A stretch of DNA of 64,000 nt, from assembly GCA_963827655.1 (NCBI GenBank), contig CAWHCF010000049.1, positions 1 through 64,000 on the forward strand, read 5' to 3'. The stretch comes from an uncultured Acidobacteriota bacterium. GTDB lineage: Bacteria; Acidobacteriota; UBA6911. The position numbers and the translations under genes were made by a program. The notes under the pieces are model-generated. The model ran no database searches. It was not told the origin of the DNA and saw nothing but the letters and a program-made list of their open reading frames with translations. Positions 54,595 to 60,953 of this stretch are shown one piece after another. The first letter of the stretch is position 1. Each line of letters starts with the position of its first letter.

Positions 54595-55855
54595 CTATGT
54601 GCTCTGGGCCCGGCTCCGTGTCTTTAACGCCTGATTCTCGAGCGAGAGGTCGGCGATGAGAATCTTCAGCCGGTAGTTCTCCTCTGCGAGTTGCTCGGTC
54701 GGCGGGCCGCCGGCTGCCCGATCTGCGCCTGGCGGGCGGTAGCTTACCGCCAGGTCGTTCAAGGCGCCCACGAGCGTGCCGATTTCGTCGGTCGAGGGCG
54801 TTCCGACCGGGCCGCTACGTTCACCGGTTGTGAGGCCGCGAACGGCAGAAGTCAGCGTCCGCAGACGTGTCACAGAAATGTGCCCAATCCAGAGTGAGAT
54901 GAAGATCCCGATGAGCGAAATTGAAATCACCCACCCCAGAGCCCAGTTGCGTTCGCTGGAGCTCTGCATCGATTCGTTGCTTGAGCAAGTCGTCGAGAAG
55001 CGAGACCGTTATGTCGTACAACTTGAAGGTGCGGGTCTGGGCTTCTTCGAGCGCGCTTTGGAGCGCGCTCGCGTTCGCGTTTCGATCAGTCCCGAGGACT
55101 GCATGGTCGAACAGTGCCAGCAACTGATCCGCCGATCGCTCGAACTGTTGGCGTGGTTGTTCCAGCGTGAGCTTCAACTTCGGATTGAAGTCAGTGGCGA
55201 CGCCCAGGTCCGACTTCACGGCTTGAATGTCAGCCTTCAGGAGCGTCAGCGTTGCCACCAACTCGTCACGGTTGCGCTCGGGCATCGGAGCGTTCGCGGC
55301 CAACCCTGGAGTTTGATCGATCAGCCGGTTCAAAAGATCGCTTTCGTTCTCGAGCTTCACCACGGAAGCGTCCATGAGGTAGTAGCTGTCCAGCACAGGG
55401 TCGAGGATCAGGCCGCTGGTGTCAATGACGAGGGCATGGAGAGATCTCAGGCTGCCGTCGATTTTGGCCTCCAGCTCAGCCGCGCCCGGCTCTGCCGCGC
55501 GCTCCTTCAACTGCTGCCACATTTTCTTGAGCTTGACGAAATCGTCAGTCGTGCCGAGCTGCGACCCGAGCTGAAGGTCGAGCTCGTCGAGTCGCGTCAT
55601 GGCCAGGTCGATGGCGACGCGCTTCTCAGCCAGCGCCTCCGATCCCGCGCCGCCTGCCTTGAGCCGCCGCGCCTCCGTAGCGAGCGCGCGAACCTGCCTC
55701 AGCGGACCGAGGTACGTGAGTCCGGTTCGCTCCTTGGCTGCAATCGAGATCGGCTCGCGCTTGTCAGCCGCCAGGAAGAACAGAGCAAGAATGTTCGCCG
55801 TAACCAGCACGGCGAACGCGACAAGCAACTTTTCCCAAATCTTCAAATGTATCAT
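54595..55855 (-). CDS. Membrane sensor-like protein: TM - helical periplasmic domain - TM - HAMP - short leucine zipper; frameshift about 54950
   Basis: Two ORFs (54821-55855, 54595-54969); SGLILDP.LDSYYLMD ligand-binding-domain motif; DEIG.L..ALN HAMP. Confidence 0.72.
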
Positions 55856-55917
55856 CGGCGGGTACTCCTTACGGCAGTTGATAAAACCGCAACGTCCGTG
55901 TTACAAACGGACTGTCT

Positions 55918-56742
55918 GTGGACATCATCTGGCTCTATCAGATTCCAAACTGGCTGCTGTGCCTCCTGGTCGTGGGCGTATTCACGACTGTCTCCCTCGT
56001 TGGCCTTAAGCTCACGCGGCCCTGGGTAAGTTCCTTCAAGACGCACCACAACGATATCGTGGCTTCCTTTGCGGCCTCGGTGGGCGTCCTGTACGCCGTG
56101 CTGCTCGCGATGATTGCCGTCGCGGCCTGGACGAATTACACGACCGTTGATTCATTGGCGGCCCAGGAAGCCGATCTGGTTCATTCGCTCTTTCGCGACA
56201 TCGAGGCGTACCCGCAATTCGAGCGCGATGAACTGCGGGGCCTGCTGCGAGAGTATGTCGACACCGTGATTCATACCGAGTGGCCGGCTCTCCAGAACGG
56301 ATCGACCGACAGGCGCGCCGCACTGGTCGTGGATTCTATCTTTTCGGGGTGGATCAAGTTGGATCCGAGGACCGAAGCCCAGAAAATCGTCAACGCTGAG
56401 ACTCTGGCGCGGCTCAATTTGTTCCAGAGCGTGCGGCAGAGCCGCCTCCAGACGGGCGGCAATGGCCTCGATGCGGTCCTGTGGGTCGTCGTGCTGGCCG
56501 GAGCCATGATGAGCATCGGCATTTGTTACCTGTTCTGGGTGGAGAACAAGCTGCTCCACCAGGTCATGATTGCCATCCTCGGTGTGATGATCGGCGTCGT
56601 GGTCTATCTCATCCTGGCGCTGGATCATCCGATGTGGGGCGCGATCACCATCCGGCCCACGGCATTCGAAGCGGTGGCGGATTCGATGGACCGGGTCTTA
56701 CACCCGCTGACGCCTGGCGAGCGGCGCGTCTCACAACGCTAA
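55918..56742 (+). CDS. DUF4239 (bestrophin-like) membrane protein
   Basis: GVLYAVLLA...W, EA, EWP, R..R, LDHP..G pattern; 4 TM. Confidence 0.82.
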   Translation: MDIIWLYQIPNWLLCLLVVGVFTTVSLVGLKLTRPWVSSFKTHHNDIVASFAASVGVLYAVLLAMIAVAAWTNYTTVDSLAAQEADLVHSLFRDIEAYPQFERDELRGLLREYVDTVIHTEWPALQNGSTDRRAALVVDSIFSGWIKLDPRTEAQKIVNAETLARLNLFQSVRQSRLQTGGNGLDAVLWVVVLAGAMMSIGICYLFWVENKLLHQVMIAILGVMIGVVVYLILALDHPMWGAITIRPTAFEAVADSMDRVLHPLTPGERRVSQR

Positions 56743-56789
56743 GGCTCGTCCGTGCGCTTGATCCATCGGTGGATTTCACGACCATCCAC

Positions 56790-57818
56790 TCAACGGTCCG
56801 TCAGAAAGAAAAGCGCCGTGAGCAGCAGCACCGAAACAACGGCGACCGCCGGGAACACCATCCGCGCAGCCCGGGACAGCCATTCCGCCCTATCCGTGTC
56901 GCCACGGCGGACGCTGCCGTGTGCCAGGATGGTCTCCACCATCACCAGAAAGATGAGACCGTACGACGCCAGACAGACGCCATCCATGAAGGTCATGTAG
57001 GAGACACGCGGCCGATTGCCGGCAATCACGAGGCTGAACGCGATTGCGGTCAGCATCGCGGTGAGACCGATGTTCATGCGGGTCTGCAAATCCGCCGGCG
57101 TCACCCAGAACGAAGTCCACGACAGCGCCGTGATCAGGGCAATCGGCAGGAACACGTTCCAAAGGTAGTACCCCACCTTCCGGCGAACGCGGATCTCGAA
57201 GGAGTATCGGGAGTAGGGGCGCCGGTCCGGATTGTGGTCGTCCATGTCGAATCGGTCACTCGCGTCGAGGATGTCCCAGTCAGGCAGAAACGCCGACGGG
57301 CTCCGCATCTCACGGCCGGCTCGCGGGACGAACACGAGCTCATCCTGGCCGAACCGAAAAGACTCGATCTGCAGCGGCAGCGTCTGCTCGTCGAACGGAA
57401 AGCGGCGCAGGTTCAATTCGGCAGCCAGATCGACCGTGAATCGCTCCTCATATTTTACGCGCCCTTCCGGGTCGAGGGTGATCTGGGCATTGGCAATCTG
57501 CCGGGGCGAGTGCTGATTCATCAACTCGATGTTCGGCGACCAGATCTGACCCAGCGTCACCCCTGCTCGATCCAGCGCCGGTGCCGCCTGCAGGCTGAGT
57601 CGAGGATCTCTCCATTCGAGCGTCAGGTAGCCGTCCATCGTGTAGATAAGGTTCTCTTCATCGACCCGAACGAAGTCGATCAGGTATGCGGCAATTTCCA
57701 CACGCACGGGCCGTTCGTTCGGCAGGTCTCGCAGGCCCGAGTGGCTGCTGGTCTGGGCTGAGCCTGCCCAGGAGACCGTCACGACCAGAAACAGGACCAT
57801 GGAAACCCGTCGACCCAT
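56790..57818 (-). CDS. Pentameric ligand-gated ion channel (GLIC/ELIC-like)
   Basis: Signal peptide; W.DPRL, IW.P.I...N, LRRFPFD.Q.L, four TM helices, PRVSYMTFMD. Confidence 0.9.
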   Translation of the reverse strand: MGRRVSMVLFLVVTVSWAGSAQTSSHSGLRDLPNERPVRVEIAAYLIDFVRVDEENLIYTMDGYLTLEWRDPRLSLQAAPALDRAGVTLGQIWSPNIELMNQHSPRQIANAQITLDPEGRVKYEERFTVDLAAELNLRRFPFDEQTLPLQIESFRFGQDELVFVPRAGREMRSPSAFLPDWDILDASDRFDMDDHNPDRRPYSRYSFEIRVRRKVGYYLWNVFLPIALITALSWTSFWVTPADLQTRMNIGLTAMLTAIAFSLVIAGNRPRVSYMTFMDGVCLASYGLIFLVMVETILAHGSVRRGDTDRAEWLSRAARMVFPAVAVVSVLLLTALFFLTDR

Positions 57819-57868
57819 ATGCTCTCCACCATTCCCGCAGGCGCCTGGGACCATTCTGTCACCGCGTT

Positions 57869-58876
57869 TCAGGTGAGGAAAATACCGGCGATCACGAGGT
57901 TCGATAGCAAGAACACGAGTGGAAACGCCCACAGGCATATTCTTGACATCGCCTCGGCCCGGTCAGGTGATCCCGATCGGCGGATGAGAACGTGTCCAAA
58001 CACGGATCCGGCGGCGGCGAGAAAGATGACCGCGTAGGCGCTGAGAAAAACTGCGTCCATGAACGTGATGTAGGAGACGCGCGGCCGCGAGTCGGCGATC
58101 ACGAGGCTGAACGCGATGGCGGTCAGGAGCGCCGTGATGGAGATGCCGGTTCGAGTCGAGATGTCCTCGGGGGCGATCCAGAAGACCGACCAGGCGAGCA
58201 CGGCGATCAGCAGGAGCGGCAGGCAGATGTTCCACAGGTAGAAGCCGGCCTTGCGCTGCACCCGGATTTCGAAATTGTACCGCGAGTAAGGCCGCCGCTC
58301 GGGATTGTAATCGTCGACATCCATCCGCTGGGATGCCCCGAGGATATGCCATTCCGCGAGAAACGCGCGCGGACTGACAAGCTCTTGTCCTTGAATGGGC
58401 GTCAGGACGAGCGCGGACCGATCATAGCGAAACGATTCGATCGAGAGCGGCAGCGTCTGCGAGTCGAACGGGAACCGCCGCAGGTCGAGTTCGGCGGCGA
58501 GCCTGGCCGTGAACCGCTCCTCGTACTTCACCCGTCCGTCATCGTCGATCGTGATCTGCGAGTTGGTCGTCTGTCGCGGTTCGTGCTCGTTCGCGAACTC
58601 GAGGTTGGGCCACCAGATCTGATCGACGGTCACCGCGGCGCGATCCAGATCCGGCGCAGAACCCTTGACCAGACGCGGGTCGTGCCAGGTCGCGGTAAGG
58701 TACGCGCTGACCGTGTAGGTCAACGTCTCTTCGGCGATTTCCTCGAAGTCGATCAGGTACGCGCCTACGCTGACCTCTACGTGATTGCCGGGTGGGAAAG
58801 ATTTAAAGCTCTGGGCCCACGCCTTGGTGCAGGCGACTAGGGCCAGTGCGGTCATGACCGCAGCTACACGAATCAT
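57869..58876 (-). CDS. Pentameric ligand-gated ion channel (GLIC/ELIC-like), paralog
   Basis: Signal peptide; WHDPRL, IWWPNLEF.N, LRRFPFDSQTL, PRVSYITFMD. Confidence 0.9.
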   Translation of the reverse strand: MIRVAAVMTALALVACTKAWAQSFKSFPPGNHVEVSVGAYLIDFEEIAEETLTYTVSAYLTATWHDPRLVKGSAPDLDRAAVTVDQIWWPNLEFANEHEPRQTTNSQITIDDDGRVKYEERFTARLAAELDLRRFPFDSQTLPLSIESFRYDRSALVLTPIQGQELVSPRAFLAEWHILGASQRMDVDDYNPERRPYSRYNFEIRVQRKAGFYLWNICLPLLLIAVLAWSVFWIAPEDISTRTGISITALLTAIAFSLVIADSRPRVSYITFMDAVFLSAYAVIFLAAAGSVFGHVLIRRSGSPDRAEAMSRICLWAFPLVFLLSNLVIAGIFLT

Positions 58877-59294
58877 GTCGGGCCTCAGGCGGGTCGATTG
58901 CGGCCAGGATCCTTATCCGCCCGAGCCGGGGGTTACTCGAGGAGAATTCACGGCATAGACGCTGGGCGGCAACTCCGCCCAGGAATCGTCGCGCTGCCGT
59001 GGGCCGCCAGGTTGCTCCTTACTTCCGCCAATTTGCGGGAAGTGTGGTTATTGTATTTGCGCGTCAACTGTTCCGGAGTTCCTACAGGCGCCGGATTCTA
59101 CACCAAGAAGATGCAAAAAGTCGCCACTGGTGTTCATCAACTTAAACCCGGCAATGCTGTCCTTGTAGGTTCGTGGTAGTGCTGCCGAGCAAAGCCAGCT
59201 TGAAGACGCTATGTCTCGAAGTTAACCCGACTCGCCGAATACAAGCCTATTGCCGGCTATTCGAGCTTTGCGGTAATAATGGGTCTTCAAGATC

Positions 59295-60953
59295 ATGAAA
59301 CTCGACCTCTCCTACAAGAACTGTACCGTGGGCAATCTCCTTACCGAGCTGGCGCACCGGTTGCCGGACCACGAAGCCCTGGTCTATCCTTACAGGAATC
59401 TACGTTGGAACTTTGCCCGGCTCGAAGAGGAGGCCGTCCGGGCGGCGCAGAGCCTGCTGGCGCTGGGTATTGAAAAGGGAGATCGAGTCGCGATCTGGGC
59501 TACGAATACTCCGGAGTGGATCGTGCTCCAGTTCGCCCTGGCCAAGATCGGCGCCATCCTGGTCACGGTCAACACTGCGCTAGGACGGCGAGAGATCGAA
59601 TACCTGCTCGCCCAGTCTGAAACCAGCACGCTTTTCCTGATTTCGGGCTTTCGCGATGTCAACTATCTCGCGACTCTGCGCGAGATCGCTCCCGAGTTGC
59701 CGCATCAAGCATTTGGCGCCTTGCGCTCGAAGAACCTGCCCTTCCTGCGGCGTGTGATCTACCTCGGAGAGGAAACCCAGCCTGGCATGCTTCGTTATTC
59801 CGATCTTCTCGAACTTGCCGGCCGTGTGGCGCCGGGAGAATTGTCTCGGCGCGAGGCGATGCTCGACGTCGACGAAGTGATCAATATGCAGTACACCTCA
59901 GGGACCACCGGGTTTCCCAAAGGAGTCATGCTCAGCCATCGCAACATTCTCAACAACGGCTCCTATCTCGGGGATGGCTTGGGTTATACGCCGTCGGACC
60001 GTCTCTGTCTTCCGGTGCCGCTATTTCACTGCTTCGGTTGCGTCATTGGCGTGCTGGGAGCCTACACCCACGGAACCACATTGATTCCCCTCGAATTCTT
60101 TGATCCGCGGCAAGTGCTCGAGATTGTCAGTCGCGAGCGGTGTACCGCCATCTATGGCGTGCCGACGATGTTTATTGCCGTGCTCGAGCACCCTGACTTC
60201 CACCAGTACGACCTCTCGAGTCTGCGGACCGGGGTGATGGCCGGCTCTCTTTGTCCGATCGAGTTGATGAAGCAGGCGATCGCCAAGATGCACCTCAGGG
60301 AGCTGACAATTGCTTATGGGTTGACGGAGGCTTCGCCCGGTGTGACCCAAACTTCTCGCTTCGATACCCTTGAGAAACGAACCACGACTGTGGGGCGCGC
60401 GCTGCCGGAGGTAGAAGTGAAGATCGTGGACCCTGGGGACGGCAACACCCTCGAGCCCGGCCAGCAGGGGGAGCTCCTTACCAGGGGATACCACGTGATG
60501 AAGGGATATTACAAGAATGAAGCGGCCACACGAGAGACCATTACTACCGAAGGATGGCTTCGAACCGGCGATCTGGCAAGCATGGACCAGGAGGGGTACT
60601 TCGTCATCACCGGCCGGATCAAGGACATGATCATTCGTGGCGGTGAAAACATCTACCCGAAAGAGATCGAGGAGTATCTTCGAACCCACCCTGCGGTAAG
60701 CGATGTGGCGGTGTATGGCGTACCGAGCGCGCGCTATGGCGAAGAGGTCGCCGCCGCAGTGAAGCTTAAGCCGGGGTTGAAGACGAACGCCGAGGAGCTG
60801 CGTCGCTTCTGTGAGGGAAATCTTTCGAGATTCAAAATTCCAAAGTACATTCAATTCGTAGAAAGCTATCCGCTCACCGCCAGCGGAAAGATTCAGAAGT
60901 TCATCCTTCGGGAGAGAGCCGCTGCAGACTTCGGCCTGGAGAACGTGTCTTAA
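59295..60953 (+). CDS. AMP-binding acyl-CoA synthetase
   Basis: [41 protein letters not shown]. Confidence 0.95.

Follow-up and report, generated by a model that had tools for sequence, protein, structure and literature searches.

A tandem pair of pLGIC genes in a soil bacterium: a probably autonomous subunit and an optional, strain-variable paralogue

Two adjacent pLGIC genes and their surroundings

The window analysed here is a stretch of 64,000 nucleotides from an uncultured Acidobacteriota bacterium (contig CAWHCF010000049.1), to which all positions below refer. On its minus strand, the list of open reading frames contains two intact, co-oriented genes for GLIC-type pLGIC subunits, named A and B, with 50 bp between them. 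They are the only pLGIC genes of this soil bacterium genome of 8.2 Mb. The locus is organised as follows.

55918-56742, plus strand: bestrophin-like (PF14023) membrane protein, convergent neighbour (Pfam E 1.3e-54)
56790-57818, minus strand: gene B, 342 aa, divergent paralogue, intact and strain-variable (open reading frame, Pfam, AlphaFold model)
57819-57868, minus strand: A-B spacer, 50 bp from the A stop to the B ATG, carrying GGAG, the ribosome-binding site of B, at 5 nt from that ATG
57869-58876, minus strand: gene A, 335 aa, GLIC-type pLGIC subunit (open reading frame, Pfam, GLIC match)
58877-59294, no strand: intergenic region of 418 bp between A and a divergent acyl-CoA-ligase-type gene, presumed A-B promoter region

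The protein encoded by A is made of a signal peptide, a beta-sandwich ligand-binding domain and four transmembrane helices. The longest frame of B covers 56790-57938; translation probably starts at ATG 57818, which a GGAG precedes by five bases. With this start, B has 342 residues, and its length is therefore equal to that of P0011, its 96% identical orthologue. The A-B spacer differs between strains by small indels, located at 57836-57852 in contigs of runs X1 and X3.

Transcription of A and B is probably joint and would begin upstream of A. A promoter scan returned no sigma-70-like site in 58877-59294 (0 sites), and the four terminator-like sites that were predicted, every one within coding sequence, were left unused. 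An Rfam search of 56600-59400 at E≤1 gave no match, hence no riboswitch pointing to a ligand. Two RNA-library contigs of 151 nt, with a depth of 2, fell on the 3′ third of B (56806-57104) and may be DNA carry-over; no RNA-library contig was found across the A-B gap.

Family membership and divergence of the two subunits

The extracellular ligand-binding domain, PF02931, was found in A with 84.3 bits and in B with 81.8 bits, both above the Pfam cut-off of 26, and the four-helix transmembrane domain, PF02932, with 46.5 and 36.3 bits respectively, again above the cut-off (28.1). Hydropathy segments were present in A and in B. The best sequence match among solved structures was GLIC, on which HMMER aligned A end to end (A residues 33-333 onto chain residues 16-314, E 7e-43). 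The AlphaFold model of B (pLDDT 87.7) has a GLIC-like fold, in which a beta-rich domain precedes helices at 217-238, 244-268, 275-304 and 308-341; the top Foldseek match of this model was GLIC (E 2e-26, TM 0.64-0.70), and the probability was 1.00 for both GLIC and GABA-A beta3 chains. The Pro-loop proline, P136 in A and P141 in B, lies in the motif RRFPFD and was invariant in the 44-sequence alignments. This proline is described as the sole absolutely conserved residue of pLGICs in a survey of the superfamily (Jaiteh et al. 2016, PMC4795631). By all these sequence signatures, A and B are prokaryotic GLIC-like members of the pLGIC, or Pro-loop receptor, superfamily. Open reading frames, Pfam domains and an identity of 55% agree with the initial annotation, which had described two intact, co-oriented paralogous subunits 50 bp apart.

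The pairwise alignment of A and B extends over 326 columns (E 3e-130). Identity reaches 60% in the extracellular domain, 54% in M1, 43% in the M1-M2 loop, 74% in M2, 35% in M3 and 32% in M4. The pore regions are the following.

58079-58168, minus strand: M1-M2 loop and pore helix M2 of A, residues 237-266, EDISTR TGISITALLTAIAFSLVIADSRPR (translation)
57006-57095, minus strand: M1-M2 loop and M2 of B, residues 242-271, ADLQTR MNIGLTAMLTAIAFSLVIAGNRPR (translation, pairwise alignment)

The peptides quoted in the initial annotation were all recovered, TALLTAIAFSLVI and APEDISTRTG in A, TAMLTAIAFSLVI and TPADLQTRMN in B, and its observation that the M1-M2 region differs between the two subunits at pore-lining positions was confirmed. 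With prime numbering inferred from the conserved Arg (0′), B differs from A at -5′, -3′, -2′, 1′, 2′, 4′, 5′, 8′, 20′ and 21′. The near-identical outer M2 had also been pointed out, but this segment is nearly invariant in all 32 aligned family members, and its resemblance in A and B is therefore no sign of co-adaptation. This also calls for caution: as the conservation of M2 is family-wide, adjacency combined with a common M2 is no argument for heteromery.

A and B each retain all of the 43 invariant columns of the family alignment (32 sequences), and B also retains the 19 that do not vary in the wider alignment of 44 sequences. Near-invariant family columns are altered at 8 of 104 positions in B, and at 3 of 103 in A. 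Since seven of the eight deviations of B are common to P0011, they are old and fixed. Synonymous divergence between A and B is high (dS 1.45), the two genes have no exact run in common longer than 20 nt, and both show a GC3 of 0.79. Gene conversion between A and B was ruled out on the basis of this dS and of exact runs that do not exceed 20 nt.

Relatives of A and B, and strains without B

Orthologues of A were found in soil metagenomes at 95, 87, 83 and 82% identity, to which the loci L004 (93%) and L008 (88%) are added. Those of B formed a single cluster, P0011, and the search gave no B-type protein in the identity range from 57% to 96%. In the family tree, the A clade has 6 rows (82-95%) and the B clade 2 rows, B and P0011; the initial annotation had asked whether the pair persists as two clades across genomes, and the two genes are not retained together across lineages: A occurs without an intact B in L008, L004, X2 and X3 (below), and B-type proteins occur only at 96% or above. 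The tree resolves A, B and the remaining 29 family rows only as a trichotomy, with a deep B branch that is as long as the others. The AU test (p 0.42) speaks neither for nor against monophyly of A and B, and B is 48-57% identical to every other family member, a range similar to its 55% with A.

Tandem pLGIC pairs are rare: in a sample of the phylum, a pLGIC was present in 20 of 401 genomes, and two on one contig only in the source genome. None of 40 family- and class-level relatives had a pLGIC at E≤1e-10, and a bestrophin-like orthologue was absent at E≤1e-20 from 30 same-family genomes, so that synteny could not be traced in isolate or MAG genomes. A one-genome-per-species scan with the family alignment gave 74 pattern matches and 1 confirmed relative, a cyanobacterial pLGIC (34%). 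The three contigs of the 50% family held one pLGIC each within the available sequence. No fused or longer form of B (600-2000 aa) was found at E≤1e-20, which is weak evidence.

Close relatives of A defined one further feature.

56924-57818, minus strand: deleted segment of 895 bp, from the B ATG through codon 298, absent in close relatives

In L008, the A stop is followed by 106 bp, then by the orthologues of the bestrophin-like gene (86%) and of the 344-aa neighbour (72%); B is absent, and the flank holds no remnant of it. L004 matches the window at 95% nucleotide identity over 1117 bp and has an intact A of 335 aa. Its position 1117 corresponds to window position 57819, and position 1118 to 56923. 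Sequencing runs X2 and X3 each had a single contig with the same joint, 56923 to 57819. This deletion allele retains the spacer to the last base before the B ATG, and leaves a start-less 3′ remnant of B. A possible second deletion, joining 56767 to 57757, was seen in X3 (one contig, with a side of 35 nt). Contigs of X1, for their part, bridge A into the 5′ end of B, and the 3′ end of B into the neighbour. For X2, X3 and X19 only the joints were used, the uncovered parts of the stretch being no evidence of absence, and L004, X2 and X3 are possibly not independent samples. Taken over the readable downstream flanks of relatives (L008, L004, and the X2 and X3 contigs), an intact B was found in none, and an A orthologue in all.

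The dN/dS ratio for the C-terminal half of A against L008 was 0.11, equal to that of the neighbouring gene, and for the whole of A against L004 it was 0.27. A thus appears to be kept intact under purifying selection where B is missing. The A protein of L004 carries F135C in the otherwise nearly invariant FPFD motif of the Pro-loop, and together with the ratio of 0.27 this could mean that A is relaxing there after the loss of B. As the contigs are short, strains scored as lacking B could also carry a B-like gene elsewhere. A functional linkage of the bestrophin-like neighbour with the pLGIC genes was considered and dropped, because only in the close relative L008 does this gene adjoin a family member; at the remaining 17 loci it does not. 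It is context, marking the conserved flank which abuts A directly where B is missing.

A strain-specific recent duplication had been named in the initial annotation as an outcome that would speak against its proposal. The strain-specific half of this is upheld, the pair being confined to a very narrow lineage and B being present or absent among near-identical strains. The duplication is not recent, however: dS of 1.45, a longest exact run of 20 nt and the deep B branch rule this out.

Role of the second subunit and comparison with known channels

The explanation that we favour, with a probability of roughly three in four, is that A is autonomous, that B is optional, and that the pair is not an obligate heteromer. 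A is the conserved subunit and would work alone, presumably as a homopentamer. B is an old and still intact paralogue, kept only in the immediate kin of the window and deleted in near-identical strains, and this distribution points to an optional accessory rather than to an obligatory partner. The strongest reading of the initial annotation is instead an obligate heteropentamer; neither subunit would then work alone, as in muscle nAChR or GABA-A receptors. The tight tandem on the same strand, the ribosome-binding site proper to B, the intactness of both genes and the unlikeness of A and B at pore-lining positions would all suit such an assembly. It is nevertheless contradicted by A being intact and under purifying selection without B, in L008, L004 and the contigs of X2 and X3; the excess of A-clade over B-clade rows (6 vs 2) and, weakly, the lack of a fused A-B form among longer proteins go in the same direction. 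We consider it very improbable, and on comparative grounds it is already largely refuted for A, although B may yet depend on A.

Where B is present, it would most likely be co-expressed and partly mix into A pentamers, a scenario to which we give slightly less than even odds. Such mixing would change the charged and polar pore rings at -5′, -2′, 2′ and 20′. In the same estimate, we gave a lower but appreciable weight to two independent homopentamers, A5 and B5, with different ligands or ions, the tandem providing only co-regulation. Both subunits retain motifs of both ligand-binding faces (IESFR, NP[DE]RRPYSRY and GRVKYEERF), so that neither looks purely principal or purely complementary; M3 and M4, the lipid-facing and inter-helix segments, have identities of only 35% and 32%; the available contigs show other family members as single genes; and the B branch, as long as the others, gives no sign of a dependent, fast-evolving subunit. 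Against this alternative, no B-type singleton was found, B being known only beside A, and co-expressed paralogues of homomers at 55% identity commonly still co-assemble. A complex prediction for A (22-335) with B (23-342), made with a 44-row alignment for each and no controls, gave a score of 0.06 and a mark of 0.32, and counts neither way. Mixing could also be the sole mode of action of B, if B were unable to form channels alone and acted only within A pentamers, as part of a strain-variable heteromeric bacterial pLGIC. B was never seen apart from A and has stayed intact over a long divergence, as would then be expected, but it is readily lost, and we find this rather unlikely.

Two further proposals concern the fate and the origin of B. 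It might be a redundant duplicate on its way out, under relaxed selection, intact by chance in the strain of the window and contributing nothing. The identical 895-bp deletion in L004, X2 and X3, the possible second one in X3, and the greater share of altered near-invariant columns (8/104, vs 3/103 for A) would fit this. We hold it for improbable, given that the frame is open, that the 43 and 19 invariant columns are kept across a dS of 1.45 from A, that the model is confident (pLDDT 87.7), and that 7 of the 8 deviations, being present in P0011 too, are old and fixed; the RNA-library contigs on the 3′ part of B add a weak argument. As to origin, an unsampled lineage may have been the donor of B, which would then have reached its place next to A by lateral transfer and not by tandem duplication. 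This is unlikely, but less so than decay. Consistent with it, B is as distant from A (55%) as from other family members (48-57%), monophyly is left undecided by the AU test (p 0.42), the L008 flank has no B remnant, pLGICs are patchy (0/40 relatives, 20/401 genomes of the phylum sample), and their frequent transfer and loss are invoked in PMC4795631. It would on the other hand imply an insertion exactly downstream of the sole homologue in a genome of 8.2 Mb, which would be a coincidence, and A and B do not differ in GC3 (0.79).

A bacterial heteromer, if true, would mean that subunit mixing predates animal nervous systems, and would offer a simple, crystallisable model of heteromeric assembly. 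As far as its sequence and those of its relatives tell, the A-B locus does not provide one, A being able to dispense with B. What it gives is a more modest practical handle: natural deletion alleles, a subunit that suffices by itself, and an optional, divergent paralogue whose pore rings differ. With such a pair one could examine if paralogous bacterial subunits ever co-assemble.

To our knowledge, every characterised prokaryotic pLGIC is a homopentamer. From the presence of a single gene in most genomes, Tasneem et al. 2004 (PMC549065) argue that bacterial members are homopentameric. A alone would fit the homopentamer expectation of this study and of Jaiteh et al. (PMC4795631), and the sparse, patchy distribution with loss is also like that of the single-gene bacterial ART-LGICs described there. 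Unlike in these surveys, two members lie here side by side, a situation that is not discussed there; neither bacterial heteromers nor tandem pairs are mentioned in the passages searched. The literature searched yielded no bacterial heteromeric pLGIC or tandem pLGIC pair, although paralogue pairs might figure in the sequence tables of PMC4795631.

GLIC, the proton-gated pLGIC of Gloeobacter violaceus (PDB 3eam, 2xq9, 6hja), comes from one gene and forms a homopentamer, whereas the present locus has two genes. Its length is similar to that of A and B which, like GLIC, are devoid of a cytoplasmic domain between M3 and M4 and have a Pro-loop without cysteines. The positions aligned with D32, D122 and R192 of GLIC are kept in A as E49, D138 and R208. 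There are also differences: identity is only about 26% in the structural alignment (B model), the M1-M2 loop of A is two residues longer, 11′ is Ala here and His in GLIC, and the residue that aligns with the selectivity Glu of GLIC, immediately ahead of M2, is not acidic.

Among animal receptors, 5-HT3A/5-HT3B, GlyR alpha/beta and nematode GluCl alpha/beta are facultative heteromers in which one subunit is self-sufficient. The likeness with the present pair is that A appears, by comparative evidence, able to stand alone, and that the second paralogue is ~40-55% identical and differs in its pore-lining rings. Unlike in these animal systems, B is strain-variable and not fixed in the genome, and a shared A-B pentamer is here only conjectural. 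Should B act only within A pentamers, it would correspond, in a bacterium, to 5-HT3B or GlyR beta, and strains with and without B would make up a natural experiment on the contribution of a second subunit.

Two tandem pLGIC genes and their neighbours

The genes concerned, in window coordinates, are the following.
57869-58876, minus strand: gene A, open frame of 335 aa
56790-57938 (longest frame), minus strand: gene B, 342 aa from the start ATG at 57818
55918-56742, plus strand: bestrophin-like (PF14023) membrane protein, convergent to the pLGIC genes and 47 bp from the B stop
54821-55855, minus strand: protein of 344 aa, hydrophobic segment at the N-terminus, no above-threshold Pfam family

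The longest B frame would run into the end of A. The ATG at 57818 has GGAG 5 bases upstream and yields 342 aa, the length of P0011, a B orthologue from the protein-cluster search. With this start the gap is 50 bp, as in the initial annotation, which had described two intact subunits in tandem and whose quoted peptides were all found in the translations. For the pLGIC ligand-binding domain, and likewise for the transmembrane region, both proteins scored above the curated Pfam cut-offs. They share 55% identity (178/326 columns, E 3e-130), and A aligned with GLIC end to end (E 7e-43). The AlphaFold model of B (44-row alignment, mean pLDDT 87.7) predicts a beta-rich domain and, after it, four long helices; its best fold matches were GLIC chains (E 2e-26), GABA-A beta3 chains coming next. 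For region 56079-58168, query-normalised TM values of the B model were 0.70-0.73 with human GABA-A beta3 and 0.64-0.66 with GLIC, meaning that the human chains match the predicted fold about as well as GLIC.

Degeneration of B was considered and rejected, given that B retains 43/43 invariant columns of the family alignment, together with 19/19 in a wider alignment, and that its deviations at near-invariant columns (8/104, against 3/103 in A) lie within the family range of 0 to 18. Seven of the 8 are common to P0011. A weak hint of B transcription came from a metatranscriptome library, where two 151-nt contigs of depth 2 matched 56806-57104, one with 3 mismatches and the other with none.

Residues 1-21 of A (58814-58876, minus strand) form a signal peptide containing LVAC, the equivalent being LVSC in the metagenome locus L004. 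LVAC presumably resembles a lipoprotein lipobox, and what we take to be a signal-peptidase-I type site, AWA-Q, is also present; for a channel subunit with four helices, lipidation would be unexpected.

No orthologue of the bestrophin-like gene was found at E<=1e-20 in 30 same-family genomes. Two putative ion-channel families adjoin here, and were seen together in this narrow lineage only. The 417-aa frame at 54776-56029, opposite in strand to the 344-aa gene, overlaps that gene as well as the beginning of the bestrophin-like one and is unlikely to be genuine.

A and B are the only pLGIC genes of the 8.18-Mb assembly. A search of 40 relatives, of which 24 belong to the same family and 16 to the same class, gave no pLGIC match at E<=1e-10. 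In an even phylum sample, 20 of 401 genomes had a PF02931 match, the window's own genome (G000) counted among them; four of these 20 had two matches, both on one contig in G000 only. Three matches of that sample, L031 (G042:C1:411515-411946), L038 (G096:C46:35205-35633) and L039 (G092:C3:4110-4451), lie in frames of 1130, 856 and 651 aa; these pLGICs carry large additional domains and may belong to the DeCLIC type. Full-text literature searches turned up no account of heteromeric or tandem pLGICs in bacteria. In the passage concerned, Tasneem et al. 2004 (PMC549065) considered bacterial members to be probably homopentamers, the argument being the single gene in most genomes. The A-B pair is real and uncommon; as a member of a known channel family, it is ordinary in kind.

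Relatives with and without B

Searching A against 5.8 billion protein clusters (E<=1e-20) gave 59 matches: four orthologues (at 95, 87, 83 and 82% identity), 26 proteins at 50-59%, then a fall to 36% or less. B gave 36 matches at E<=1e-60, of which P0011 alone was close (96%), the next best being at 57%. The 50-59% proteins are about equally distant from A and from B. A maximum-likelihood tree of 45 rows was built under LG+C20+F+G4, with ultrafast bootstrap and SH-aLRT as support values; in it three groups join in a three-way fork without resolution. One is the A clade, with 6 rows and support 100/99; the second, the B clade, has 2 rows (100/100) on a stem of 0.62; the third gathers 29 other rows (93/98). 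A constraint joining A and B lowered the log-likelihood by 0.37 units; with an AU p of 0.42, their sister grouping is neither supported nor rejected. Codon comparison of A and B gave dN 0.385 and dS 1.45, with a longest exact shared run of 20 nt and a GC3 of 0.79 in each. The split is therefore old, recent gene conversion being ruled out by the short run and the dS, and both genes match host composition in GC3. B could stand beside A through an old tandem duplication, lost repeatedly, or could have been acquired late.

A family-alignment scan of metagenome contigs yielded 17 loci, to which one genome locus was added; tblastn with A and B found a single pLGIC in 18/18. In metagenome locus L008, an A orthologue (88% identity) is represented by its last 149 residues, and 106 bp after the A stop there follow:
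L008 557-1447, minus strand: bestrophin-like orthologue (86%), convergent and directly adjoining A
L008 1441-1920, plus strand: orthologue of the 344-aa protein (72% over 160 aa), beside the bestrophin-like gene
Downstream of A in L008, B is absent, with no recognisable remnant in 95 unaligned bases.

L004 matches the window at 95% identity along 1117 bp, and the A that it encodes is complete, at 335 aa (93%). Co-linearity with the window extends across the A-B spacer as far as 57819, the base before B's ATG; the next base corresponds to 56923, in B codon 299. The 895-bp deletion has taken away the B start together with 298 codons, and what is left of B is a tail lacking a start. Contigs of four public sequencing runs were compared with window 55500-59300. 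The same joint (56923 to 57819, skipping 895) was found in one contig of run X2 (depth 9.3, shorter side 53 letters) and one of run X3 (depth 2.2, shorter side 102 letters). L004, X2 and X3 are possibly not independent samples. Another X3 contig has a different joint (56767 to 57757, skipping 989, shorter side 35 letters), which could, on this weak evidence, be a second, independent deletion. Run X1 has one contig (57639-58773) running from A into the first 60 codons of B and another (55500-57561) from B codon 86 onward through the neighbour, so the tandem is present there, at about 97% identity. Within the spacer, at 57836-57852, X1 and X3 contigs show two 1-base losses and insertions of ATCC, C, T and T, meaning that the spacer is not conserved even among B-keeping strains.

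Among 50%-family contigs, no second pLGIC was found within 2.7 kb (L005) or 1 kb (L006) upstream, or within 3.5 kb downstream (L007), the other side being too short in each. The pair is not kept together across relatives, B being missing in L008 and deleted in L004 and in contigs of X2 and X3; these contexts are short metagenome contigs, and B-less strains may have a B copy elsewhere. Two intact GLIC-type subunits stand in tandem, of which A is conserved and long separated from B, while B is limited to near-identical kin and deleted in part of them.

Substitution rates between the window and B-less loci
Comparison; dN/dS; dS
A C-terminal half, window vs L008; 0.11; 0.59
Bestrophin-like neighbour, window vs L008; 0.11; -
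Whole A, window vs L004; 0.27; 0.12

Between closely related sequences, 0.27 is no exceptional value. As far as sequence tells, A survives without B. One of the 23 replacements in the L004 A is F135C (L004 462-464), which falls in RRFPFD, an otherwise nearly invariant Pro-loop motif (FPFD); it could point to relaxation of A in that strain, and may be a first sign of decay, a sequencing error or a polymorphism. Separately, a single base of A, at window 58223, is missing from one low-depth X3 contig (2.5 of 14.3); the cause would be an error of assembly or else a frameshifted A allele that is rare.

Assembly of A and B

The obligate heteropentamer of the initial annotation is contradicted by the natural B-less relatives, and we consider it very unlikely. 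Instead, A would form functional homopentamers, the two genes would be transcribed together, and B would be an optional accessory. Where B is present, the chance that it mixes into A pentamers is, in our estimate, a little short of even: the presumed co-expression from one locus speaks for mixing, as do the identity of 55% and the constant occurrence of B next to A wherever it was seen. That B builds pentamers of its own is a more tentative proposal, to which the conserved motifs of both binding-domain faces, retained in A and in B, lend weight, as do the low identities in M3 (35%) and M4 (32%). The pair offers a modest test case for facultative co-assembly.

Pore helix M2 and the M1-M2 loop

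The near-identity of outer M2, pointed out in the initial annotation, is genuine as a likeness. The motif TA[LM]LTAIAFSLVI hardly varies, however, among the 32 aligned members of the family; judging from this alignment, the likeness reflects constraint on the whole family, A-B co-adaptation not being its cause. The M1-M2 loop does differ, as had been noted, with 3/7 positions identical: the family consensus is PED..TRT, from which B departs (PAD..TRM).

Pore-facing residues (prime numbering, conserved Arg set to 0' by inference)
Position; A; B
-5'; E; A
-2'; S; Q
2'; G; N
20'; D; G

Compared with GLIC, A has an M1-M2 loop two residues longer, and is without an acidic residue at the position aligned just before M2. 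The longer loop has what we take to be the length found in anion-selective animal receptors, which the M2 pattern presumably also resembles. The selectivity of the family may differ from that of the cation-selective bacterial models.
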